A stretch of 26,151 bases of DNA from a virus (lineage: Duplodnaviria; Heunggongvirae; Uroviricota; Caudoviricetes), in the IMG/VR virus record IMGVR_UViG_3300029288_000128, positions 1 to 26,151 of that record; one strand, 5' to 3'. Within the stretch, counting starts at the first letter, position 1; each line of letters starts with the position of its first letter. The notes under the pieces were generated by a model. The model was not told the DNA's origin. It worked only from the letters and a program-made list of their open reading frames with translations, and did not search any database. The position numbers and the translations under genes were made by a program. Of the stretch, positions 1 to 22,090 are shown in pieces.

Positions 1-851
1 TCATCTTGAAACTCTTTATACTTCTGAAGATCAGCAGAGCGTTTCTTTAAAGCATATAAGCCAGCTTTATTTCTAACCATGATACCTTCGTATCCATCTG
101 AAATATATTCGCTATGCTTATCCATGACTTGAGCTTCGTTGTCAACAAGATATGTTTCAACAAACTTCAGCTTAGAATTGTTATCAATCTGTTGATACAT
201 CTTAGTAACTTCTCTGATTCTAGAATAGAAATCATCTTTGTTTATCATATCAAAGATATGATATTCTAAGTCTTTACTTTGAGGTCTAAGCTTTTTAATG
301 AACGAGATTGCTTCTTGGAATGTATAGTCATGAGAATAAATCTCACCGTCCATGATCATGCCTACATTCATTACTCGAAGTAAGTCTGGTGTCAGATGTT
401 CAAGAGTTGTAAACTCTTTGCCCATCCTGGAATAATACTTGATTGTTTTATCGTCTATCTTTTTAGCTATACATCTTACGCCATCAAGCTTAGGCTGAAC
501 ATAAGCTGGATATACTATATCATGCTTACGTTCCTGGAACTTATGAGCTAGCATTGGAAGCAAGACTTCGTCCTGAATCTTAGCTATGTCTTTGACATAA
601 CCTTTATCTAGCTTATGCTTCCATGTAGCTTCAGCTTCTAGGCAAGCTTGTTCCCATGGCGATGTTGAATTAGAACGTCCTAGATTCTTACCCTCGGTAA
701 TAGTACTCGATGATTCTCTGACTTTGCTATCACCAGCTCCATACTTAACTGTGATTACAGCTTCATTTAAACAACCAGCCACGGAGATCTCCCAATGTTT
801 GATCTTACCTGTACTTGATTGTTCATAAAGCTTAGGAAATTTCTTAATCAT
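1..851 (-). CDS. lig: ATP-dependent DNA ligase (3' end runs off the window)
   Basis: Not in ORF track. Manual translation from ATG at 851: MIKKFPKLYEQSSTGKIKHWEISV...PMLAHKF...YVQPKLDGVRC (motif I KxDG)...MDGEIY (III)...YHIFD (IIIa)...YEGIMVRN (IV)...LQKYKEFQD (V). Confidence 0.96.
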   Translation of the reverse strand, partial: MIKKFPKLYEQSSTGKIKHWEISVAGCLNEAVITVKYGAGDSKVRESSSTITEGKNLGRSNSTSPWEQACLEAEATWKHKLDKGYVKDIAKIQDEVLLPMLAHKFQERKHDIVYPAYVQPKLDGVRCIAKKIDDKTIKYYSRMGKEFTTLEHLTPDLLRVMNVGMIMDGEIYSHDYTFQEAISFIKKLRPQSKDLEYHIFDMINKDDFYSRIREVTKMYQQIDNNSKLKFVETYLVDNEAQVMDKHSEYISDGYEGIMVRNKAGLYALKKRSADLQKYKEFQD

Positions 852-3772: not shown

Positions 3773-3907
3773 CTAAGAATCGGGCCGTCTATTTACACTG
3801 ATCAAACACTCAGAGAAGAGAGATAGAATGTTCTCTCCTTTACTAAAGAATGAGGTAATAATTATTCTCTCCTTGTGAGGTAGAAGCAGAGATAAAATAG
3901 AAAGCAT
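3773..3907 (-). CDS. Possible small ORF (44 aa)
   Basis: Not in track. MLSILSLLLPHKERIIITSFFSKGENILSLFSECLISVNRRPDS*; TAATG overlap with the upstream stop and ends 1 nt before the next ATG. Confidence 0.45.
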   Translation of the reverse strand: MLSILSLLLPHKERIIITSFFSKGENILSLFSECLISVNRRPDS

Positions 3908-4098
3908 TAGTGAATTAAAGTGTAAATGAAATAGCATGCAGCAATTATGACTAATATTAAAGCAAACTTACGTCCTAAAGCCCCTCGACGATAGAGATTA
4001 AGACGTTCCTGACGGGCACTGCTTGCCCTATAAGGTGAGAACAAAGCATCTAATTTGTCACGGCCATCTGATAACAATGCTTGTAATTTCATAGGCAT
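3907..4098 (-). CDS. Small membrane protein (63 aa, C-terminal TM helix)
   Basis: FALILVIIAACYFIYTLI hydrophobic tail. Confidence 0.7.
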   Translation of the reverse strand: MPMKLQALLSDGRDKLDALFSPYRASSARQERLNLYRRGALGRKFALILVIIAACYFIYTLIH

Positions 4099-4111
4099 TT
4101 TATATTAATTT

Positions 4112-4161
4112 ATATAACATATAAAATATATAAATGCTACCAAGAACGTGGGTTAGACCAC
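4112..4161 (-). promoter_or_regulatory. Bipartite promoter-like element, copy A
   Basis: Plus-strand CGTGGGTTAGACCAC at 4147; minus-strand TATGTTATAT 25 nt downstream; 13 nt from ATG 4098. Confidence 0.55.
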
Positions 4162-4371
4162 TGCTATATCACAACCACAGGCGTATTTCTCTCCCAGTTT
4201 CATACGATTATGAATAGGACAGAATGCCGGGGCAAGCTTAATCTGCTCTGACTTGGCTAATGTTGGCACAATATAGCCTATAACCTTTCCGTTCTTAGTA
4301 ATAGCCAATGGTAAGGCAGTTAGTTCCTTTGACAAACTGCTCCTAAGAAGTTTTATATTTATTTTTCTCAT
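4153..4371 (-). CDS. Phd/YefM antitoxin-like DNA-binding protein with Cys/His-rich tail (72 aa)
   Basis: MRKINIKLLRSSLSKELTALPLAITKNGKVIGYIVP fits the Phd/YefM beta-alpha-alpha-beta-beta pattern (ITxxG+); C-terminal CPIH...CGC. Confidence 0.65.
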   Translation of the reverse strand: MRKINIKLLRSSLSKELTALPLAITKNGKVIGYIVPTLAKSEQIKLAPAFCPIHNRMKLGEKYACGCDIAVV

Positions 4372-4404
4372 AATGATATTGCTAATATTAAACTAAATAA
4401 AAAT

Positions 4405-4442
4405 AATAGTGTACACAATAGGTACTAAAAGTGTACACTATT
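4405..4442. promoter_or_regulatory. Operator: two GTGTACAC palindromes within a 12-bp inverted repeat
   Basis: AATAGTGTACAC (4405-4416), 14-nt spacer, GTGTACACTATT (4431-4442); overlaps the -10 box of the promoter below. Confidence 0.7.
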
Positions 4443-4477
4443 CTATGATTAAAGTCAACTAACGTGGGTCTGACTAC
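4428..4477 (-). promoter_or_regulatory. Bipartite promoter-like element, copy B
   Basis: CGTGGGTCTGACTAC at 4463, 4 nt upstream of the -35 box; TGTACACTTT at the same 25-nt offset as the other copies. Confidence 0.6.
4430..4458 (-). promoter_or_regulatory. sigma70-type promoter TTGACT-N17-TACACT
   Basis: Minus-strand -35 at 4458-4453 and -10 at 4435-4430, upstream of ORF 4153..4371. Confidence 0.7.
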
Positions 4478-4492
4478 TCCCGCCTGGGATAA

Positions 4493-4524
4493 CAAAAAGA
4501 AAGGGAGTAGCCGAAGCCACTCCC
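4493..4524 (-). terminator. Rho-independent terminator
   Basis: Minus-strand GGGAGUGGC-uucg-GCUACUCCC followed by UUUCUUUUU, just after the stop at 4541. Confidence 0.9.
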
Positions 4525-4540
4525 AATCTTTCTTAACCTA

Positions 4541-4861
4541 CTACTGTGTAACCTCGTCATCTTGAACTAAGGCAACGAAGAAGTCTGGTTGTTTATCACC
4601 TGCGACCTTACGATTGTTAGGTTGTAGGTATAACCTGTCACCTGGTTTCAAAGTCACGGCGTCGAAACGGTCAACCATTTTGCCGTCCTTGTCCTTAGAC
4701 TGTCTGCCAATGTTGACAGAGTAACCACCACCTTTGGCTTTCCAAGCGGCGCCAATTGATGGCCAGAAATTTCTTGGTCTTTCAGCTTCTGAGAAGCCGT
4801 TCGCGTAAGCGATTGTTGCTTTTGACATACTTTTTGTGTAGCAATGAAATGATAGATTCAT
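4541..4861 (-). CDS. DUF736-like protein (probable true start ATG 4828, MSKAT...)
   Basis: IGAAWK and NNRK..DKQPDFFV segments resemble DUF736 motifs (recognised by eye). Confidence 0.7.
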   Translation of the reverse strand: MNLSFHCYTKSMSKATIAYANGFSEAERPRNFWPSIGAAWKAKGGGYSVNIGRQSKDKDGKMVDRFDAVTLKPGDRLYLQPNNRKVAGDKQPDFFVALVQDDEVTQ

Positions 4862-4887
4862 CTAACATCTAATGCTAGCGTTAAATA

Positions 4888-5196
4888 TTAAATTAAGCCT
4901 TTATCTTTGGCGTAGTGTAGGGCATTAAGCACACCCGCCGATTCATCTTGATGACATTCAGTCCTAATGAACTTCTCTTGTTCACCTAAGGTAGGGAATG
5001 TCGTTGCTGTTTGGAGGACAGCAAAGCCTTTGTCAGTCACGCCTTGTTCTCTAGCCCAGCTAGGCGTGCTGATTTCGAAGAATAGCTTCATAAGACAAGC
5101 ATTATGAATTAAGCGAACTTGTTTATCGAGTCGACCTTTATAAATAAGTTCATACATATCAGTTATTTGCTTCCGAGAACGTGGGTCAGACACCAC
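4888..5196 (-). CDS. Hypothetical protein (start uncertain: GTG 5196, ATG 5157 or ATG 5091)
   Basis: ORF track; the annotated start lies inside a repeated promoter-like motif, so a downstream ATG is more likely. Confidence 0.65.
   Translation of the reverse strand: MVSDPRSRKQITDMYELIYKGRLDKQVRLIHNACLMKLFFEISTPSWAREQGVTDKGFAVLQTATTFPTLGEQEKFIRTECHQDESAGVLNALHYAKDKGLI
5145..5196 (-). promoter_or_regulatory. Bipartite promoter-like element, copy C
   Basis: CGTGGGTCAGACACCAC at 5180; minus-strand TATGAACTTA 25 nt downstream. Confidence 0.65.
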
Positions 5197-5231
5197 GAGT
5201 GGATGGCGAAGCTTATCAATTACGTAATAAT

Positions 5232-5259
5232 AAAAAAGGCGATACCGTGAGGTACCGCC
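5232..5259 (-). terminator. Rho-independent terminator
   Basis: Minus-strand GGCGGUACC-ucac-GGUAUCGCC followed by UUUUUU. Confidence 0.9.
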
Positions 5260-5264
5260 ATTAA

Positions 5265-5429
5265 TTATACTTCAGCTCTCTTTAAGCTTGACACATAGTG
5301 CCAAGACTGCGAGAACTGACAGACTGGACAATCAAACCAAAGTATCTTGTCTTCATTCTGTTTAACATAACCAAGAGCTTGACACTTTGGGCAAATGATT
5401 GTGAAGTAAACAATTTTCTTTTTTGCCAT
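5265..5429 (-). CDS. Small zinc-ribbon protein (54 aa)
   Basis: Not in track. MAKKKIVYFTIICPKCQALGYVKQNEDKILWFDCPVCQFSQSWHYVSSLKRAEV*; CPKC...CPVC; followed directly by a terminator. Confidence 0.8.
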   Translation of the reverse strand: MAKKKIVYFTIICPKCQALGYVKQNEDKILWFDCPVCQFSQSWHYVSSLKRAEV

Positions 5430-5458
5430 AAGATTATATTTAAGAATTAGCTAAGTTA

Positions 5459-5474
5459 GTGAAGATGTATTCAC
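5459..5474. promoter_or_regulatory. GTGAA-N6-TTCAC palindrome, copy 3 (GTGAAGATGTATTCAC)
   Basis: Intergenic; the stem extends to 12 bp on the minus strand with one G-U pair. Confidence 0.7.
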
Positions 5475-5502
5475 TAACCTAAGCCAAGTCTTAAGCACGC
5501 AG

Positions 5503-5652
5503 TTAAGCTTGATGTTGGCCTGAAGCCTGGTCATCTAGAAATTCTAGCTGGCCTACTTCAGTGTTAAGTATCTTACGGCCAAGGGCTGTAAGTTTAACAT
5601 TGTGCCTGTTGCTTGAACTACAGGCGAAGTTGATTGCATCTTGTGTGTACAT
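5503..5652 (-). CDS. Possible small ORF (49 aa)
   Basis: Not in track. MYTQDAINFACSSSNRHNVKLTALGRKILNTEVGQLEFLDDQASGQHQA*; first ATG downstream of promoter-like copy D. Confidence 0.45.
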   Translation of the reverse strand: MYTQDAINFACSSSNRHNVKLTALGRKILNTEVGQLEFLDDQASGQHQA

Positions 5653-5670
5653 AGATGTAAGTTAATTAAT

Positions 5671-5720
5671 TAAGTTCATAAGTAATTGATAAGCGCAGCC
5701 AATACCGTGGGTCAGACTAC
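5671..5720 (-). promoter_or_regulatory. Bipartite promoter-like element, copy D
   Basis: CGTGGGTCAGACTAC at 5706; minus-strand TATGAACTTA 25 nt downstream, identical to copy C. Confidence 0.65.
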
Positions 5721-6119: not shown

Positions 6120-6147
6120 TTGACATATCGTGTGGATGTGCTATACT
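6120..6147 (+). promoter_or_regulatory. sigma70-type promoter TTGACA-N16-TATACT with extended -10 (TGc)
   Basis: TTGACA 6120-6125; TG 6139-6140; TATACT 6142-6147. Confidence 0.7.
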
Positions 6148-7195: not shown

Positions 7196-7224
7196 TTGAC
7201 AATTTACAATTTTAATGATAGAAT
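7196..7224 (+). promoter_or_regulatory. Near-consensus sigma70 promoter TTGACA-N17-TAGAAT with TGn extension; predicted leaderless mRNA
   Basis: -35 at 7196-7201, -10 at 7219-7224; ATG 7231 lies 6 nt downstream, at the expected +1. Confidence 0.8.
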
Positions 7225-7894: not shown

Positions 7895-10800
7895 ATGAAT
7901 ATAGACAAACAACAATACACGAATACCGTCTTAGCAGCTAAGAATAAACTGAAGAATGGAACTTCTTGGGGCGATGTTTGGAATGAAGTCAAGTCTAAAT
8001 TCAAAGAACTACCTAACGAACAGATAGATTACGATCTCGGGCCTGAGTGGCGCGAGGCGAATGCTTATCAAAAATATTTAAAAGGGAATCTACCTCCCGT
8101 ACGATCGACAGTGAAGTATAATTACTTCGCTGATTTGGAATTGGCCAAAGCCAAACTAAACAAAGGCTTCGATCTCGCCAAAGTGCAGAACGAGTTGACT
8201 AGTAAGTATAAGAGTTTAGATTCTAAACAAGTTCTTACAGACCTAGGTGCACAGTACAAGCTACCTAAAGCCGGGCCCATGACTCCTGAGATCAAGAAAC
8301 TCCAGACCGTTACTCCTAAAGAGGAACTCAAACTAAAGGCCTACCAGAAAACATTAGATCCCGATTACCTTAGTGGTAAGAAGGATCCTGTTAAAGATGC
8401 CGTTAAGATTGAGAAAGAAGCCATTGACCAGGCCAAAAGGATTGACGACTACAATAAACCCGAGCCAACTGTTACCGTAGTAGAACCAAAGCAGCAGGAC
8501 GTCACCATTGTTGAGCCCAAGCCACAGAAAGTTGAAGTCGTTGATCAACGTATGTCAGAGAAGCCAAAAGTAGATCTGGATACGAACCCTTATACACCAG
8601 AAAAAGAACCTTTTGTCAAGCCACTAAAGGTAGATGATACAAGGACTTCTTCCGATACCGCTCATAGATTGAATCTTTTCTTTGATAACGATCCTGATGT
8701 CGCCAATCTTGATAGAAAGTACGGCAACAATCTAGATGCTATACACCAGCCAGGGAATGAAGACATCTTCAATGAAGTTGTGGGTGTTACGCTGCCTAAG
8801 ATGCAGGAACTCGTTAAGCCAATAATGGCTGACAATAAGTCAGGCATGGATTATATATCAGAACAACTTGATAAGTTCTACGATGAGACCAAAGTAACGC
8901 CTTACTGGCAGAGCCGGATCAAAGCAGTGACTGATAAGATGATCGCCGATCCGAACATTGATAATAAGAAACTCCCCAACCCATTCTTTACAGAAACGGT
9001 ATTCCCAAAATATGAACTAACATTAGCGGACCTACAGCCAAAGATAGATGCCGTGCAGTCAATGAGCACTATAAGCCATATTCAACCCACTATTAAGAAG
9101 GACGACAAGACCATAACCGTCATGTCTCAGATACCAAATAGCACGCCGATGATTGTTATCCCGGATCAAGTTGTACGTGATATGACAACCAGGAAGCTGA
9201 CAAAGGAAATAAACCTAGAAGAATGGCAGATCGAGTTGTCCAAGGCGCGAAGAGACAAGGAACTTGCAGTCACTGGCAAGATCCCGGCTATTCAAAAGAA
9301 ATTTAATGATGAAGTAGCTAAACTTGATGCATTGAAAAAGGCCACAGGTATTCCAGAGGATAGCATTATTAGAAAAACTCAAGTGGCAGAAAGAGAAATG
9401 ACTACCCAGGAAGGGGAGATATTACAATATATAAATACAAAATTGTCAAAAGCGTTCTCTTTTAAAGGGACCGAGTCTGTCAACGCTCTTAGATCCAAAC
9501 ATGGCGCCGCGATAGCTGAACTCTCCAAGAGCCTGAAAGTTTTGTCTGACTTGAATTCTTTTAACACAACTCGTAACGAACTTAGTGCTACGTATCAGAA
9601 GACAGCGCTTACCGAACAAGCTCTTACCAAAAAATATAAACAAACCAATTCTGATATAGAGAAACTTATTGCTGTTCCAGGAATGAAGAGTTATATAGAG
9701 GGTGCACAAAAAGATCCGGCACAGATAACCCCTGCCGAATATACTTCTCTTATTAATTTCCAAGCCGATAACAAGGCAAACATCAATAAACTTATCGAGT
9801 TAGGTAAGCAGGTAGAAAACATTCGGGCAGAAATGTCAAGGAACTCCATAGCCGGGAACAACGCGGCCAAAAGATATCAAGAGATAAGCGATGACATCAA
9901 GTCTAGCTTTAATGGCGCCGTCGCCGGCATAACCTCAACTAACTTCAAACAGATTGTTACGTCAGGAAACATCATGTCAGCCACAGAAGCGGACGATCTG
10001 ATTAAAACAATCAAAGGATATGATGCCAACAAGAGGTTCGTTGAATCGAACAATGACAAATACCTAAAGGAACTCGACAAGTACGACATGAAAACCCAGA
10101 AGCTGTTACTCGAAGAGGCTGTCATACAAGATAATATACAAAACATCTATAATGACCTAATAAAAGTTTCGAACGAGGTTACTGATGCTGATAAACGTAT
10201 CGCAAAATATAGCGGCTTCGATGAAGTGGCTAGACTTAAACATGAAAGCCAAGTCCAAGAAGCTGTATTAAAAGCCAACTATAATCCTTTTGCCTGGAAG
10301 ACTTTGAAAACCGCAACAGAAGAAGTCTTCGGAGAAAGCGCAACGGCTATGGACGTCACGGATGTAAGACTAGCTGCCGGCAAGAGCGTACTCGGCGGCA
10401 CAGGAGAACTTGCAATGGATATAATCTCAACGGTAGGTAAAGGATTGATACAGATCCCGCGCGTAGCTATCAATTCAATTGATGGTGTAGTTAAACTTGG
10501 CGCGGCCATGGGTAATTACCAGCTTTCTAACATGGAGAATCTTGGTATTAAAGGTAGCGAGATAGACTGGCTTAAACAACAGAACCAAAAGATAATAGAT
10601 TCACCTTGGCTCGCCGATGAGATGGGCAAGGGTATCGCGGCCGAAGCAGCTGATTATTATAAGAACCTACATACATACGTATTGCCTCAGATAGTAATGC
10701 ACGCTGGAGATACTGTTAAATTGTTAGAAGGTTTCTGCAACTTTGGTGAAGAAGGAACCGATATAGCGCGAGACTGGTTTCTTAATGGTGTTAAAAACGC

Positions 10801-16800: not shown

Positions 16801-19800
16801 TCCTGATAGTATAGTCTCGAGACTTGTTGCTATGGAAAAAGGCGACATAACCAAGATGACTATAGCCGAGTCTGCCGCCATAGCCGCACAGCGCGCCAAT
16901 GTTTACATGAGCAAGGCTGATATCTCCAGGTTTATTAAGGAAAATAACCTTGGAGAAAGCGAAGCAATGGACTTCCAGGCCGCAACTAAAGGCAAGAAGG
17001 TTCTTGTTATTGCCGATGACGTGCAGTCATCGTTGTTTGATGCTGATCGAAACACTTTAAACGAAGCCGTACACAATGGTATGGAGTTCATGTTCTCTGA
17101 CAAAATGTCAGTTGGAGAAGAACGTGTTTTGGAATACATCTCACAATTTAAAGGAGTGAAGTTGTCTTCAATCAAGGAGTCATTGATTGGTAAGATTAAA
17201 AATGGCCAAGTAAAGAATGGCCCTGATATGATCTTTACTATAAGCAAGAACATTAAAGAACAAAACCGCGCGTCACTACTAAAGAAGTGGGAAGAAGTTG
17301 ACGCCGCTGGCCAAGTCAGGATATACAAATCGTCAGACAAGATAATGAATGATATCCAGAATAAATTTACACAAGAAGTCGACAAGTGGAGATCGTCAAA
17401 AGAAAATTTCTTACCAGACTTTGCAGTAGAGAAAGCTAAGTTCGGCGAAGACCCGAAAGATATACTAATAGATCTCGCTTCAGTTGCCGGTACAAACAAA
17501 ATAAAAGAAGCGATGAAGCTAAACACAGAGGCAATGCTTAAGGATTACCGCGAACAATTGATGAAGACAATACCAGAGGGGATCGATGATATAACCAAGC
17601 GAGCAATGATCAAGCAGATAGAGAACGAAGTTGGATCAACTGCTATCCTTATGAAAGAAATTGGCACAGAGATATTCAAATTCGGTGAAGGTAAGACATG
17701 GCTTGAAACTTTAAGAAATAAAATTTCATCACGCCTTACGTTCTATGCAATGTTTGACCAACCTCAAACAGGATTGAATCCGGGTTACCCAGATGTGATA
17801 CCAGAATATGTGACGGCTTTGCGCTCAGCAGAATGGATGCTTCGTAACGGCAAAAGACTAGCAACAGAGTTGTCCGCATTAGGCAGCACATTGATGAGCG
17901 TATGGATACGCGCCGTCTTGCTATATAGACCTAGATGGCAAGTGTGGAATACATTAGGTGATGGTGTTAGAGCAATAGGTGCGGCCAAAGATGTTATGAT
18001 AATGAGCAAATACCTTGAAATACTTTCAGTAGGATCGTTTAAATTCTACAAAAAGTTCTTCAAAGAAATTTCCAAAATACCTTTAGAAGCTTTACCTAAA
18101 GGAGCCAGAGAAAGAATGAGCGGCTTCTTGTCTCATGATCTACTCGAACTTGATTTCTCCAAACCATTAACCAGAACAAAATACTTTGAACTTAAAAGTT
18201 CTTTGTCTGATGTGGCTAAGTTGATGAAAGAAGGCGGAGTATCTGCGACTGGCGAAACAATCACTCCAGCGATGATGGATCGTATGACTTCATCAGGTAT
18301 TGATAGAATAATTGCTTCGCCTGAATTCGCTCAAGAGAAGATCAACTTGATGAAGACTAGTGGATTCCTGTCGCGCGTTGCTAAGAGAGTCAGAGTCATA
18401 GATAGTGATATACAAATTGTTTCATCTACAATGGAATCAATGAGACGTGCCACATTGGCATGGAATTTGCTATACAAAAAATCAATGAGCGCTGCCAGAG
18501 CTGAAATGAAAATTAAGAAGTGGCAGTTCGACTATAGAGAACTCACATTAGCCGGACGTTTAATGAGAAACTTTTTTCCATTCTATACATTTACTTCTAA
18601 ATCACTGCAATTATATCTAGGGCTATGTGCCAAGTATGGACCTGGTGTTTGGAACGGAGCCAGCGCTTTGCTTGACGCGTTTGAATCAGCCACAGAAGAT
18701 ATGCCAGACCAATATAAAACTAGAATACAAATAGGTAATAGGGTTTGGTGGCTTACAAACTTTGGTGTCCAAGAATATTTTGATATGATAATCAACCCAT
18801 CCAAGATGATGGAAGAGTTTGTTAAAAATCCAGGGCATATGCTATTCGGTTTGAGCTTCGGGCCAATAGGTAGCGCCGCCATGAATGTTATTACCGGGAA
18901 AGGATTCTATGATACCACTGCTTCTACCGAAGAATTCTACCAACGCGGCTGGACTACAGAAGAAATAGATAACTTTAAAAATAAAGATGATGCTAAGTTT
19001 TCAGATTCTATTTCATTTGATAAGTCAGACGAAGCTGTCTACGCATTGCTAGTAGCCTCGTTACCATTTGGTGCGCTAGCTCAAGATCTTACGAAGGTAG
19101 ATATTGCTACGATACTCAGAGGCAATACCACCATGAATAGCAAGAAGGTCAGGACATTGATGAATTATTTCTTCGGTGCTAACTACAAGAAGATGGAAGA
19201 TATCGAGATGGTGTTTGATACTATGATGAAACTTCCACCTCACGAACAATACATACTCAAAGAATCATTGAAGCGCGAGAACCCTGACTTGTATGACTAC
19301 CTAAGACAGTACTCACTACTTAGTAAGATAACAAAGATTCTAAACGCACAAGGAGTTGATTGGTCTGACAAGTCTCAGAACCTTATTAATTCCATGGTTG
19401 TGTATCTTTATTATGATAAAGAATCAGAATTACATGGATCTGGTGACGAATGGTTGAATGAGAATCCAAACTTTAAAAAGATAATGGAAGCCCAATGGGC
19501 AACAGGGGCAATGACATCCGGCAAGATCTATGGCAAAGAAAAGTTTGCCAAGGCCCAACTAGAATCTATAGCTAAAAAGATTTTGACCAATGTCAAAGAT
19601 GCAGATGATAAGAAGATAGCCAAGATGAGGCTAGCCGGTATCGAGATTCCTTTTGACAAATCAATTAAGAAACAAGACTTGTATAATTCTTTCTACGATG
19701 ACAAAGGAAACTTCAGACTCACAAGCGAAGACCAGTTGGTTAATATAATTGATGCCTATGGGCTCGAAGGCAAACTGTTTGAGATAAACAATCTCAAGTC

Positions 19801-22090
19801 AGAAGCCGAGAAAGGATACCAGGATTGGAAAAACCTGTCGCTTAAAGCCAGAGATTTAAAGAATGCCAGTGATCAAAAGTATTATGACAGTATGTCGATG
19901 GTATTCAAAGTTCTGCCAAGCAATCTCGAAGACATGTCTCAAGAAGAATCGGCCAAAGTCTGGAACAAATATAACGCACTACTTAAGACTTTAATACTTG
20001 ATAACCCTGAATTCAAAAAGAAATATATGGCAGAGATGCCGGAGTGGCAGCGCAAGTACGGCGAATTCAATGCCAAGTACGCAGCTATCTGGGCCAAGTT
20101 AAGATCAACGTCTGATGATAGCGAGAATTACTTTACTAAATTCTCAAAGCAACCAGCCTGGTTCCAGAAGTGGTATTTTTATGGCAACCCTGAAGCCAGA
20201 ATCACGTACCCAAAATACACAACAATCTTTGCTGAGATGAAAAAGAATCCTAACGCCGACTACTATGATCTGTTCTACCAGAAACTTGGTGACAAGTCAT
20301 GGGATAAATTCAGAGAGCTAGTTTTCAAAAAGTATCCAGAAAAGAAAATCTATTTCCCTGTCGCTGCAATCTATAATAAGACAATCAAAAAATTAATAGC
20401 CCTTACTGGGGATGATAAGTCAGCACAGTTTGCTAAGTTATATGATTGGTTATGGGCCAAGCAAGATGTATTGAAAGCATGGGATAAAGCCAAGCCAGGC
20501 CAATATGTTTATATCGAGAAACTCAGAGAAATGAATAAATCAGGTGATGCCTCGGATTACTATCACAGATTCTATGCTAATAATGACAAGTCATGGAAAG
20601 AATTCCGGAAAGTTTACTTTGATAGAAAGCCATTACGTAAAGAATACTATCCATTGGCATTAGAACTTGAAGGCAAGACTTATGCTGAACGCGAAGCTAT
20701 ATTGAAAGATCCTAAATACAAGGATGCTATTATAGCCTGGAACAAAGATAAGCCGGGTGGCTTGGCGCGATCACAAGAGTATGTTAAATACGAAAAGCAA
20801 TGGGCCCAATTCAATGCTATTGATGATTCTACCTGGGAAGGTAAGCGTGCCAAGGCAGAGTTCTTAAAAACGAACCCCGATCTTGTAAAACTCTGGGATA
20901 ATAATGACAAGCCGGAAGAACTCGCGATCAAACACAAGCAAAGAGATTACTTTGATATCCTTTATCAGATACCAGCTGACGGCAAGGGGCGAGACTACCT
21001 AACAAAGTACTTTACTTTGAAAGCTCAGGCCGATAAATTCTTAAAAGATAATCCGGATCTTCAAAAATACTGGGATAGTAAAACAAAGATTACAACATCA
21101 AAAGAAAAAGTTGTCAATAATTTAAAAGATAAGTTCTTTAGTCTCACATTATCTGCTGACAAACAGCAGTTCTTAATTGAGAACCCGGAACTAGATCAGT
21201 ATTTCTTAAACCTTTTACCGCCTGGTATAAGGAGACTTAAGATACTTGAGAACTTATATTTCAAACTTAATGACAGCAGTACTAGAAAATCATTCCTACA
21301 AGCCCGGCCAGAGTTAATCGAGTACTGGGAGATGAAGAAGATGCCGGCCAGTTTCTTAACTAACCCGGGAGTAATGAAAGAATGGAACGATAAGTTGGCT
21401 AGCTTTACACGATTTACTGACGCTGCCACCAAAGGTAGATGGGAAGACGTCGAGTTGCTGCGCAAATCTATCTCTTCGGCGCCAGACACAACTACCGACG
21501 AAGGCAAATGGTTGGCCGATAAGATGTATACTGAGGCCATGAAAGCATGGTCAGCAACATTTGGTTCAATAATGTCTACATATTTCTTTAGAGCATTACC
21601 ATCATGGATAAGAGATGAGTATTTTAAGAGTCACCCTAATTCCAGGGTCCTATCGTATTTGTCTCTTGGTCGAGCCATGGAAGAAGGCTTACGTATATAC
21701 GAGTCAAAGAACAAGCAAGAATCCTGGGCACTTAAACTGCAGGAAAAGTATGGCAAAGATATGCCATATAAACTGAAGGATAAGGTACAGCGAGAAATGA
21801 TACGTCTTGGTAAATGGCACGACAGATCCTACTGGTCAAAAGCACAGTGGGCTGAATACAATCTGCAGCATTTGGCCAAGCAGAATAATATAAAGAGCTC
21901 TGATTTTGATAGGATCAAGTTCCTAGGCATCATAGCCAAGCGAGTTATTGAAACTTATTCACAATCTATCTTCCCGAAACCATTAAAAGAGTTCGGAGTT
22001 TTGAATGTATTCTTAGGATCAGAAGAACTGCTTATGCGGAAGAACCTCGCAAAGAAAACGAAAACAATATTGTTTGACTATGAGCTCTAA
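7895..22090 (+). CDS. Giant (4731 aa) virion/DNA-ejection or polyvalent protein with LysM-like segments
   Basis: Uninterrupted 14.2-kb ORF directly upstream of adaptor-like and nozzle-like genes; coiled coils, Gly/Ala hydrophobic segment, DPINYL motif, three LysM-like units, and a QFDY...FFPFYTF motif like those of phage polyvalent/internal virion proteins. Confidence 0.85.
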   Translation: MNIDKQQYTNTVLAAKNKLKNGTSWGDVWNEVKSKFKELPNEQIDYDLGPEWREANAYQKYLKGNLPPVRSTVKYNYFADLELAKAKLNKGFDLAKVQNELTSKYKSLDSKQVLTDLGAQYKLPKAGPMTPEIKKLQTVTPKEELKLKAYQKTLDPDYLSGKKDPVKDAVKIEKEAIDQAKRIDDYNKPEPTVTVVEPKQQDVTIVEPKPQKVEVVDQRMSEKPKVDLDTNPYTPEKEPFVKPLKVDDTRTSSDTAHRLNLFFDNDPDVANLDRKYGNNLDAIHQPGNEDIFNEVVGVTLPKMQELVKPIMADNKSGMDYISEQLDKFYDETKVTPYWQSRIKAVTDKMIADPNIDNKKLPNPFFTETVFPKYELTLADLQPKIDAVQSMSTISHIQPTIKKDDKTITVMSQIPNSTPMIVIPDQVVRDMTTRKLTKEINLEEWQIELSKARRDKELAVTGKIPAIQKKFNDEVAKLDALKKATGIPEDSIIRKTQVAEREMTTQEGEILQYINTKLSKAFSFKGTESVNALRSKHGAAIAELSKSLKVLSDLNSFNTTRNELSATYQKTALTEQALTKKYKQTNSDIEKLIAVPGMKSYIEGAQKDPAQITPAEYTSLINFQADNKANINKLIELGKQVENIRAEMSRNSIAGNNAAKRYQEISDDIKSSFNGAVAGITSTNFKQIVTSGNIMSATEADDLIKTIKGYDANKRFVESNNDKYLKELDKYDMKTQKLLLEEAVIQDNIQNIYNDLIKVSNEVTDADKRIAKYSGFDEVARLKHESQVQEAVLKANYNPFAWKTLKTATEEVFGESATAMDVTDVRLAAGKSVLGGTGELAMDIISTVGKGLIQIPRVAINSIDGVVKLGAAMGNYQLSNMENLGIKGSEIDWLKQQNQKIIDSPWLADEMGKGIAAEAADYYKNLHTYVLPQIVMHAGDTVKLLEGFCNFGEEGTDIARDWFLNGVKNAGLSQDAVNLIESFSEVIDPYIYGSRLLHAIRLNMNDPDLPENADLLWTEYDKKTVTTTIDGPLENFLDPWNQERIEEIKELNKGIKDFNNIPAGTELIIYPGNPYASQIMKDMDKRQKFIAGMQSEERFITDETTSLYDIVKVGPDREKIITSILDLNDFNALGLNSKNTNDWTEIPKGITIRIPKAFDEPLVANILLSTSARLKYAKEHPIRYTLFNEALILGTDPINYLWAPGMQAIKLGSTSVLKAGYSKLATAAEKSAYLATTKKMADFTWSLSRVLFEKKAPLPQLYNNPDNLSFFKLVKNGMEFKSMDLTTLSSLRTKLAAMSVVNSLPDMFRPIVKMTDNEIENLRELNTIKYLQGLEDVTKTQGLAKDQIETFLSNYIKDQKGATTREREIFHVFSEKLGLGTQEIEDMIGKTHPELYYNKVVTTKVTNIKDIVDKDIMADKAKYDEIVRINQFKERKIDPEKIPTGFKVVVSEDNFIKRVKDQIYYSRFVTKPEQEYMMLRMGKLDDIGNEALLNFFRRTSVNGEPIRLIMNQKELDQAIRRMHLKYPKAKESINKAVDVAKEYRRRTKFYANAVSQQILVPIKMTSNMKMFVLDSKNPLDYKLLKDKQAFTTIKNPDTGEMILIYNKNYASKIGLGMDLIAYNAKLYGKKILNLDEAIGTMSTSLRKMEVSGGKTERTWFRENPDGSIELVQQPATGGKAKVEFTLKKGTAADNITLRNLLVTAAIRKEIGWLRKFFNKQEYAIIFGNREKGIKGLLDNIIELSGKKIKVKQSYERDMGEVLDDLQRLGAAGNRKKFSIDEQDLEIFSGDSQIEFLLSLAASIQDIYRTNKSIFNITHGILKKTKEEIQRSLAAGKMPVHKMTPVEDLTLLIMDKVEKNKNFFGGNSKIIDKLLGDVNITDTEKSSIAKEVESLANSRKQMLKAKRILNKMRDGGFAKNTVDDINRGIKTQFTFNTLKGESREAAVGRVLKTIPGFISPEDASRFKLGKLSDEAAMQMDFMHKALYAYAANPINEQFTYLISRNIPQEALPGAITEYSKPILEAFVKLSKKLDDEHGAPKERFTSIIEDAVHHAQDSLVVLKLTAGQMAKDVVAKLDTLELEVAKAKKQMLKDTGTFNKSKFGKKYQAFTKVAQDNLTRSSSRYKQLLEEAEAYAKKYGTEFHDRLSAEMEFMPSSRLQSDFVITPEIEKALYSVKTGEHKGSTLVISNRTPEEAAVIEYLRSKPNEFLEGSDFVVEKADEIKDLMTSEEIVELMYKRNLNPLAYWMLDNQNGLTMYKDSIVRLLSLSVDPTVSRELKQVYYDKLYRFMINSNVMSFDLFKKDLPHLSAERLMLMSPQQLTKEIMTSNVSVARKQELLKLAKAKGAEMLQKQLELSDIEKATTAGATESKLESLSSGIVRSKKQTPVGENLSRAEQPDYIDPDRLREGSLNPTENKDSRINIDQNEKLFDEMENLNAALYAVRKALGIEDLTKLTKGKVADNQSLLWKIEKSFDGDIATEDELKLLSMANGNYIAVGGAEFTKETTRRMAKAKLPITEFDNDKFVSDMATALDAPSAMGHEDLEKRILDTAGTSEMRAKVAKIDDELATVNNSEANLRATIYSDTKLLDDATKKGRADKVTAIESDLVSYRKALVTVESKKNALELERDSLSRKIDANTNATDFLVNNKFDGDSFKYIEKRIAEIDNSISRTERLIKSTTDRQTLGNLLISKRMLEAERNMYNAAKRMIVPWNIATMNGVQFTAKEIYQAAKGYISPEMESKLATLGPKVAEYIKDANAGNMKAIGLDDINLPTVKMTKINKDSIRDLFYKPIEEGKIGHPSAMRVPKVDTITIETMRDSEAIVAAIKDLIERTSKEQRYPYVIDMTGNLAKRLERLDPELAKKVHIVNKDYFTHDSLANINATAGTILTDSEVKAYEEIIKGINEHGPVWIFGEKSAKVNADTIKDAFYKKALDEDERLLLRQARIDSDRITKKFRESSPGSAMFYPKDPDSIVSRLVAMEKGDITKMTIAESAAIAAQRANVYMSKADISRFIKENNLGESEAMDFQAATKGKKVLVIADDVQSSLFDADRNTLNEAVHNGMEFMFSDKMSVGEERVLEYISQFKGVKLSSIKESLIGKIKNGQVKNGPDMIFTISKNIKEQNRASLLKKWEEVDAAGQVRIYKSSDKIMNDIQNKFTQEVDKWRSSKENFLPDFAVEKAKFGEDPKDILIDLASVAGTNKIKEAMKLNTEAMLKDYREQLMKTIPEGIDDITKRAMIKQIENEVGSTAILMKEIGTEIFKFGEGKTWLETLRNKISSRLTFYAMFDQPQTGLNPGYPDVIPEYVTALRSAEWMLRNGKRLATELSALGSTLMSVWIRAVLLYRPRWQVWNTLGDGVRAIGAAKDVMIMSKYLEILSVGSFKFYKKFFKEISKIPLEALPKGARERMSGFLSHDLLELDFSKPLTRTKYFELKSSLSDVAKLMKEGGVSATGETITPAMMDRMTSSGIDRIIASPEFAQEKINLMKTSGFLSRVAKRVRVIDSDIQIVSSTMESMRRATLAWNLLYKKSMSAARAEMKIKKWQFDYRELTLAGRLMRNFFPFYTFTSKSLQLYLGLCAKYGPGVWNGASALLDAFESATEDMPDQYKTRIQIGNRVWWLTNFGVQEYFDMIINPSKMMEEFVKNPGHMLFGLSFGPIGSAAMNVITGKGFYDTTASTEEFYQRGWTTEEIDNFKNKDDAKFSDSISFDKSDEAVYALLVASLPFGALAQDLTKVDIATILRGNTTMNSKKVRTLMNYFFGANYKKMEDIEMVFDTMMKLPPHEQYILKESLKRENPDLYDYLRQYSLLSKITKILNAQGVDWSDKSQNLINSMVVYLYYDKESELHGSGDEWLNENPNFKKIMEAQWATGAMTSGKIYGKEKFAKAQLESIAKKILTNVKDADDKKIAKMRLAGIEIPFDKSIKKQDLYNSFYDDKGNFRLTSEDQLVNIIDAYGLEGKLFEINNLKSEAEKGYQDWKNLSLKARDLKNASDQKYYDSMSMVFKVLPSNLEDMSQEESAKVWNKYNALLKTLILDNPEFKKKYMAEMPEWQRKYGEFNAKYAAIWAKLRSTSDDSENYFTKFSKQPAWFQKWYFYGNPEARITYPKYTTIFAEMKKNPNADYYDLFYQKLGDKSWDKFRELVFKKYPEKKIYFPVAAIYNKTIKKLIALTGDDKSAQFAKLYDWLWAKQDVLKAWDKAKPGQYVYIEKLREMNKSGDASDYYHRFYANNDKSWKEFRKVYFDRKPLRKEYYPLALELEGKTYAEREAILKDPKYKDAIIAWNKDKPGGLARSQEYVKYEKQWAQFNAIDDSTWEGKRAKAEFLKTNPDLVKLWDNNDKPEELAIKHKQRDYFDILYQIPADGKGRDYLTKYFTLKAQADKFLKDNPDLQKYWDSKTKITTSKEKVVNNLKDKFFSLTLSADKQQFLIENPELDQYFLNLLPPGIRRLKILENLYFKLNDSSTRKSFLQARPELIEYWEMKKMPASFLTNPGVMKEWNDKLASFTRFTDAATKGRWEDVELLRKSISSAPDTTTDEGKWLADKMYTEAMKAWSATFGSIMSTYFFRALPSWIRDEYFKSHPNSRVLSYLSLGRAMEEGLRIYESKNKQESWALKLQEKYGKDMPYKLKDKVQREMIRLGKWHDRSYWSKAQWAEYNLQHLAKQNNIKSSDFDRIKFLGIIAKRVIETYSQSIFPKPLKEFGVLNVFLGSEELLMRKNLAKKTKTILFDYEL

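Follow-up and report, generated by a model that had tools for sequence, protein, structure and literature searches.

What is the short sequence that recurs, always in one orientation, ahead of a run of small leftward genes near one end of a tailed-phage contig, and what might read it? The window, by which we mean the whole stretch of 26,151 nucleotides (nt) analysed here, is the first 26 kb of the 90,151-base pair (bp) IMG/VR phage contig IMGVR_UViG_3300029288_000128 (Caudoviricetes; 38.5% G+C). On its plus strand CGTGGGTYWGAC occurs at 4147, 4463, 5180, and 5706, and a sequence scan bears out these four same-orientation copies (A, B, C, and D, in that order), which had been pointed out in a preliminary description of the same DNA. 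Comparative data support its view that they belong to a conserved, strand-specific, phage-restricted cis element, here called the box, that heads modules of terminator, box, and gene. With slightly better than even confidence, we read the box from these sequence comparisons as the recognition part of a predicted phage-specific promoter cassette, one that would need a dedicated factor and that has a plasticity like that of the promoter-early stem-loop (PeSL) cassettes of T4-type phages.

The clustering of the box is extreme. The minus-strand 14-mer GTCWRACCCACGKT has four matches in 1.6 kb, against 0.00 expected from 100 dinucleotide shuffles, and a scan of the whole 90-kb genome gave the same four forward matches, no reverse matches, and no control matches, leaving no copy on either strand beyond the 1.6-kb cluster. 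When 11 representative copies are anchored on the box, the conserved unit proves to be a continuous 24-nt block, GTCTRACCCACGKTnTTRGnWGCR, followed by an invariant A at position 28 (A28). The motif of 12–15 nt that was originally described is thus present as stated, but the unit itself is longer. Conservation sets in abruptly at G1 (GTCT), and past A28 the signal is weak and AT-rich. A 29-nt weight matrix run over the 90-kb genome recovers the full copies A, C, and D with scores of 41–45, and nothing else scores 12 or more; copy B, which has the first 16 nt only and a replaced 3' half, is a half copy that falls below the matrix threshold.

The box also recurs in relatives. The window encodes a giant protein in a 4,731-amino acid (aa) open reading frame (ORF) that starts at 7895, 2 kb from the box array, and a homologue of this protein (56% identical) lies on a syntenic 88-kb contig, L009, which carries five box copies on the same strand in the corresponding place (four full copies and one box-only copy, r3). 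A metagenome scan with a 19-nt pattern picked up L018 and L022, which belong to the L009 lineage, and L020, which represents a third; through homologues of a 67-aa cassette protein, two close strains were identified, L023 and L024, each with five box copies. In all of these the box stands at orthologous sites with diverged flanks. Few stretches can be aligned at the nucleotide level between the window and L009; the cassettes are among these, at 74%–78% identity and higher inside the boxes, which are some of the few non-coding sequences that align, and the sequence from box to ATG is likewise conserved. More distant relatives (L010, L011, L027) have a different gene order and no box. Three further matches to the 19-nt pattern, in unrelated contigs of ~50% GC, were rejected as chance, as were three unrelated single-match metagenome contigs that have no proteins in common with the phage, and a 23-nt pattern found one match in 185,579 prokaryote genomes, probably by chance (~4 expected by estimate). 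Because the matches elsewhere are single and in unrelated contigs, with one stray match among prokaryote genomes, the box is, as far as sequence searches indicate, specific to the group of the window phage. IMG/VR searches with the N terminus of the giant protein, with the box plus TATGAACTTA, and with the 67-aa family returned no relatives, and a DNA search of a phage collection had no match to window DNA.

The arrangement around the boxes is as constant as the boxes themselves. In six loci, covering every lineage, the order is box, small gene or genes, intrinsic terminator, 20–45 nt, and next box. Box D comes first, followed by a zinc (Zn)-ribbon gene, with a 49-aa gene added before it in the window lineage; then come terminator T1, ~40 nt, the box or boxes r2/r3/C, a 67-aa gene, and a ~100-aa gene; and then terminator T2, ~20 nt, box A, and a gene for a membrane protein of 61–63 aa, preceded in the window lineage by half-box B and an insertion. 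In every lineage a terminator precedes boxes C and B/A by 20–45 nt, and the terminators at 4524–4503 and 5259–5238 agree with the earlier statement that B and C follow strong terminators. Of the full copies A, C, and D, each either opens the leftward block or follows an intrinsic terminator at a distance of 20–45 bp, and a start codon comes 60–100 bp after it. Because D comes first in the block and the other boxes lie past the U tracts, no box is part of an upstream transcript, which argues for a role at the DNA level at the start of each unit.

One of these start codons had been predicted from the cassette geometry, namely ATG 5091 for ORF 4888, and three observations uphold it: homologues are 67–68 aa long, L009 has an in-frame TAA between box and ATG, and the indels upstream of the ATG are of 1–2 nt, not multiples of three (strain contigs show 1-nt indels at 5100–5156). 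In the leader of this 67-aa gene (window 5100–5140, minus strand), AAAGGTCGAC and GCTTGTCTTATG are kept in all three lineages, and the spacer between them varies. An ATCAAT/ATTGAT motif is also conserved near boxes, at window 5679–5691 (minus strand) and ~25 nt upstream of the r2/C boxes (~5212–5219); in D-type copies it forms an integration host factor (IHF)-like WATCAANNNNTTR between box and second element. Pfam and PHROG searches of the cassette genes gave weak zinc-ribbon matches only.

Downstream of the box the picture is looser. Exactly 25 nt after CCCACG the four window copies read TATGTTATAT, TGTACACTTT, TATGAACTTA, and TATGAACTTA, so that the earlier statement of a fixed distance and of two identical elements is literally correct. 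Comparison of orthologues from the three lineages shows that just RTG is preserved, 24–25 nt after CCCACG, and that the element is not conserved as a hexamer (A-type: TATGTT, CGTGTA; C-type: TATGAA, TGTGAA, TATGAG; D-type: TATGAA, TATGTA, CATGTA). The spacing holds to within one base in three of the four copy classes, but r2-type copies have a full box and no RTG element. The proposal that the TATGAACTTA-like part is a conserved sigma70 -10 fails on the same comparison: in orthologues such as TGTGAA, CATGTA, and CGTGTA, A-11 or T-7 is often missing, and for this reason the second element is not a host -10. The box cores follow TTRGnW-16-yRTGwA, with no match to the host sigma70 consensus. A TAnnnT -10 at 16–18 bp from a -35-like hexamer is seen only in copy A and its L023/L024 orthologues (TATGTT) and in the separate promoter behind B; C, D, and the majority of orthologues have none. 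Copy B does lie 4 nt upstream of TTGACT-17-TACACT, as had been noted.

Promoters of host type are used elsewhere in the same phage. A near-consensus family, ccTTGACA-N14-aTGcTATACT, occurs on the rightward strand at 6120, 42018, 44050, and 53408, with others at 7196 and 22074, and the promoter at 6120–6147 (plus strand) is conserved in L009 (8172–8203). The box cassettes are clearly a different class. Since their core is so far from the consensus promoters used elsewhere in the phage, a dedicated trans-acting protein would seem to be needed. Under the promoter reading that we favor, each full copy would restart leftward transcription for one of three successive small-gene units; the 5' half (GTCWRACCCACGKT) would be a separable recognition site, and the 3' half, TTRGnWGCR, with RTG ~16 bp further on, would form a weak core far from the host-type consensus. 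Initiation would then depend on a box-reading protein, probably an activator or a sigma-like factor that the phage itself encodes and that acts together with host RNA polymerase. The original idea of an activator box or promoter class is therefore retained in part: the conserved cis element and the PeSL-like gene variation speak for it, but its sigma70 -10 is not supported and its hairpin (see below) is weak.

Candidates for the reader are a 75-aa sigma region-4 protein, a Ros/MucR-like protein common to the window phage and the L009 lineage, and the Zn-ribbon protein. The first is a stand-alone sigma70 region-4 protein (genome 42466–42693, plus strand; locus L029 1465–1692; 40 bits) with homologues 92% and 64% identical and also 75 aa long; its gene follows a consensus promoter and a GroES-like gene, and its sequence includes SRERVRQIE, the recognition helix of primary sigma factors. 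One candidate for the predicted factor, it could function in transcription or as a region-4 decoy. The L009 lineage encodes, behind the ligase gene, a protein of 196–214 aa with an N-terminal sigma region-4-like helix-turn-helix and a Cys-rich basic tail (L025 10456–11046; L026 1666–2310), a protein that has no counterpart in the window genome. Searches of the complete genome gave no match to sigma region 2 or region 4_2, and there is no sigma PHROG among 39 proteins, with seven families not listed; gp36-like sigmas are very divergent (PMC8948821).

Several points weigh against a factor-dependent promoter. The SRERVRQIE helix would be expected to prefer TTGACA. Conservation runs through the whole 24 nt, including G19, G22, and C23 at the would-be -35 and spacer, which fits a single large reader equally well, and the r2-type copies keep the entire box without RTG. 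If the genes are immediate-early, a phage-encoded activator would not yet be present.

Known phage promoters offer partial parallels. Activator-dependent promoters such as those with the T4 MotA box, the Mu C/Mor sites, and the lambda cII sites have a weak core and an activator site at or upstream of -35. The box cassettes share this layout of weak core and upstream site, but those promoters keep a good -10, have other site sequences, and have known activators. The nearest studied precedent is that of the phiEco32-like podoviruses (PMC8948821), distant relatives by SU10-type capsid that likewise have opposed early and late gene blocks and a phage-specific promoter consensus. Their phage-sigma promoters read tAATGTAtA, with starts 6–8 nt downstream (in phage 7-11, GTAAtg-16-aCTA; PMC8948821), and the second element here, yRTGTAw, resembles AATGTA. 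However, no gp36-like sigma was detected here, and the phiEco32-type promoters, which drive middle and late genes throughout the genome, lack the 24-nt upstream box that is the dominant conserved part in the window phage.

Gene content differs between copies in related genomes, as the preliminary description had proposed to check, and the indels are bounded by cassettes. Relative to L023/L024, the window lacks exactly one box-to-box unit (alignment A2), the product expected from recombination between two direct box copies. Between half-box B and box A (alignment A3), L023/L024 have ~190 nt, the window has a 72-aa gene with its own host-type promoter, and L009/L022 have nothing. A strain in run X6 is without the 49-aa gene, 5413–5661 being replaced by 24 nt; contigs from other runs break or join at boxes, as in an X3 contig that joins 4159 to 4517; and half copies are separable (B in the window, r3 in L009). 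These sequence comparisons show gene turnover at the box, linked to recombination, and the boxes most likely serve as breakpoints for gene gain and loss as well. The repeated cassettes would act as homology patches, recombination at which would delete, duplicate, or swap small genes. PeSLs of T4-type phages (PMC2839356, PMC4122927) are similar in being small repeated modules of terminator and promoter that flank small orphan genes in a plastic region, with indels between related genomes beginning or ending at cassettes and an upstream-terminating stem-loop adjacent. They differ in that PeSL promoters have a sigma70 consensus with an AT-rich upstream part, in contrast to the GC-rich 24-nt box with poor -10 and -35 here, and in that there are dozens of PeSL copies versus 3–5 here in one locus.

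An unlikely alternative, though one with several points in its favor, is that the 24 nt make up a whole promoter, read not by the host sigma-A holoenzyme but by a different polymerase, either virion-delivered or an unrecognised phage enzyme, on the logic of N4 and T7. The recognition part would be GTCTRACCCACG, with hairpin potential; the T-rich KTnTTR after it would be the melting tract, and transcription would begin close to G19. In length and layout, a contiguous block of 24 conserved positions matches T7-type promoters, with their span of -17 to +6 (PMC4496689), and the 3–4 clustered co-oriented copies heading a gene block recall the promoters P1–P3 of N4 virion RNA polymerase (PMC4496689), three such copies that head an early block with a conserved GC-rich core, a partly variable complementary flank, and then an A-rich template tract. 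The box of r2-type copies, which has no RTG downstream, is readily accommodated, but the RTG kept at a fixed distance in the other copies stays unexplained.

Part of the case for this alternative is the hairpin. Upstream flanks often pair with CCCACG (CGTGG/CCACG, CGGGG/CCC(A)CG, ACGTGG/CCACGT), and the pairing energies are enriched against random genomic flanks (Fisher p-value 1e-6). Most of this signal vanishes under composition control (p-value 0.003 against composition-preserving shuffles). Stems are 3–6 bp and loops 5–10 nt in varying register; there is no stem in L020 1149, L024 20, or the B copies, no consistent covariation among orthologues, and no family match in an Rfam search. The hairpin signal is weak, and the 4-bp GTGG/CYAC hairpin first described for each box is marginal. 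N4, by contrast, needs a stem of 5–7 bp and a 3-nt loop centred at -11.

The enzyme itself is also elusive. No N4/T7-like polymerase was found here: in the complete genome there was no PF00940 match at E≤1 (control genomes in the same search likewise gave none) and no two-barrel polymerase signature. The 4,731-aa protein encoded near the boxes, probably virion-borne by analogy, belongs to a family of ~25 representatives of 4,300–5,900 aa; it gave no lead in Pfam, PHROG, PDB sequences, or Atlas, it has no motif-B pattern, and neither it nor the other large proteins have a conserved DxDxD. Its most conserved ~670 aa (residues 3437–4110, FDYRDLT...FFPFY) are predicted to be all-helical (predicted local distance difference test [pLDDT] 68), and the predicted fold has no significant structural match. 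Residues 3137–4336 correspond to window 17303–20902 (plus strand). That the block is a self-sufficient promoter for an enzyme unrecognisable by sequence, for example a module in or delivered with this protein, strikes us as rather improbable. If true, N4 and the crAss-like phages would be joined by a third, independent example in which an injected enzyme carries out early transcription, this time with its promoter defined; in crAss-like phi14:2, the promoters used by the virion polymerase yielded no motif (10.1101/2020.03.07.982082).

Readings of the box as an operator, as purely a recombination site, or as an RNA signal are less likely than the promoter cassette. Early-gene shut-off is common in lytic phages, and the site is sequence-specific, asymmetric, and adjoins or overlaps the -35-like TTRGnW, as might be seen if a phage repressor bound there and, later in infection, silenced weak small-gene promoters read by the host. 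But cores without a usable host -10 leave little to repress, a site mostly upstream of -35 is poorly placed for repression, and the tandem copies r2, r3, and r4 resemble reinforcement more, and we regard the operator as quite improbable. It is very improbable that the box is mainly a site of recombination or mobility (an integron attC-like boundary or a homing target) with no transcription role. Indels and half copies do begin or end at boxes, but plain homologous recombination between 24-bp repeats suffices for this, as argued for PeSLs (PMC2839356); there is no integrase or recombinase gene next to the array, and the constant distances to terminators and start codons and the conserved sequence from box to ATG also speak against it. 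An action in RNA, as processing site, protein-binding hairpin, or nut-like antitermination signal, deserves very little credence, since the weak hairpin potential with its conserved loop and 3' arm is set against boxes that come after strong terminators, with no leftward promoter detected upstream of D, and are probably seldom transcribed, with no Rfam match or consistent covariation. On inspection of the sequence, sigma54, extracytoplasmic function (ECF), sigma32, and Bacteroidota promoter types, DnaA boxes, iterons, pac sites, and mini-ORFs were rejected as misfits in spacing or conservation.

Table 1. Boxes, second elements, terminators, and genes of the leftward array (window coordinates), with orthologous box positions on related contigs
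Feature	Position	Strand	Orthologues	Remarks
Box D, full 24-nt copy (GTCTGACCCACGGTATTGGCTGCG)	5694..5717	-	L009 7917, L020 1149, L023 1197, L024 20	matrix score 42.9; first leftward cassette, ahead of 49-aa and Zn-ribbon genes
Second element of D (TATGAACTTA)	5671..5680	-		25 nt after CCCACG; orthologues keep ATG only
49-aa gene	5503..5652	-		first behind box D, window lineage only; absent in L009, L020
54-aa Zn-ribbon gene	5265..5429	-		two CxxC pairs; conserved cargo of box D
Intrinsic terminator T1	5228..5259	-	equivalents in L009, L020, L022, L023, L024	9-bp stem and T run; ends box-D unit
Box C, full copy	5168..5191	-	L009 7298, L020 717, L023 1979, L024 848	score 41.5; 40 nt behind T1, 100 nt ahead of ATG 5091
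Second element of C (TATGAACTTA)	5145..5154	-	TGTGAAC, TATGAGA at 24 nt	
67-aa gene	4888..5091	-		conserved cargo of box C; start ATG 5091
~100-aa gene	4541..4861	-	homologues 95–116 aa	after 67-aa gene; start may be internal ATG 4828
Intrinsic terminator T2	4493..4524	-		UUCG loop and T run; ends box-C unit
Box B, 16-nt half copy (GTCAGACCCACGTTAG)	4459..4474	-	degenerate in L023, absent from L009 lineage	~20 nt behind T2
Host-type promoter TTGACT-17-TACACT	4430..4458	-		behind half-box B, part of inserted 72-aa gene module
72-aa gene	4153..4371	-		between half-box B and box A; insertion, window lineage only
Box A, full copy	4135..4158	-	L009 6573, L023 2877, L024 1791	score 44.8; overlaps 72-aa gene stop codon, 60 nt ahead of ATG 4098
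Second element of A (TATGTTATAT)	4112..4121	-	L009 CGTGTATATT	
63-aa membrane-protein gene	3907..4098	-		conserved cargo of box A

The box array sits close to the switch between two opposed gene blocks: minus-strand genes run from ~6200 leftwards and wrap around to ~62 kb, and plus-strand genes occupy 6600–61,500. The wrapping reflects a genome map that is effectively complete and circular. A gene for an ATP-dependent DNA ligase is split by the contig ends (window 3–851, minus strand, and genome 89766–90151), and adding 2 nt at the junction makes it a single ORF of at least 412 aa; because the ligase frame closes across the ends, we rate the contig, labelled "linear, 76% complete" in its record, as a complete circular map of ~90,153 bp. 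This phage has also been assembled a second time, at 90,153 bp. The phage encodes a large terminase and a capsid protein of the SU10 type, with most remaining proteins belonging to no family, and its DNA is present in metagenomes from landfill, groundwater, manure, and wastewater. Across the genome, Shine-Dalgarno sites are essentially absent (3 of 62 start codons), 47 of 62 starts have T at -1, and positions -3 to -6 are A-rich. The RtcB gene (genome 87314–89254, minus strand) appears interrupted, with a 74-aa ORF for the RtcB N terminus, a 153-aa ORF that matches HNH weakly (E 0.08), and a 338-aa remainder; in L025, RtcB is uninterrupted at 404 aa.

For an uncultivated phage lineage in which nearly all proteins are unannotated, the box is a precisely defined and phylogenetically supported cis element. 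It stands at the head of the leftward block and sets two classes of promoter apart within one genome, and its 24-bp sequence is a concrete bait for the factor or polymerase that reads it. Modular shuffling of genes at terminator-promoter cassettes, described in T4-type myoviruses, also takes place in an unrelated phage group, here with a predicted promoter that is not of the consensus type.

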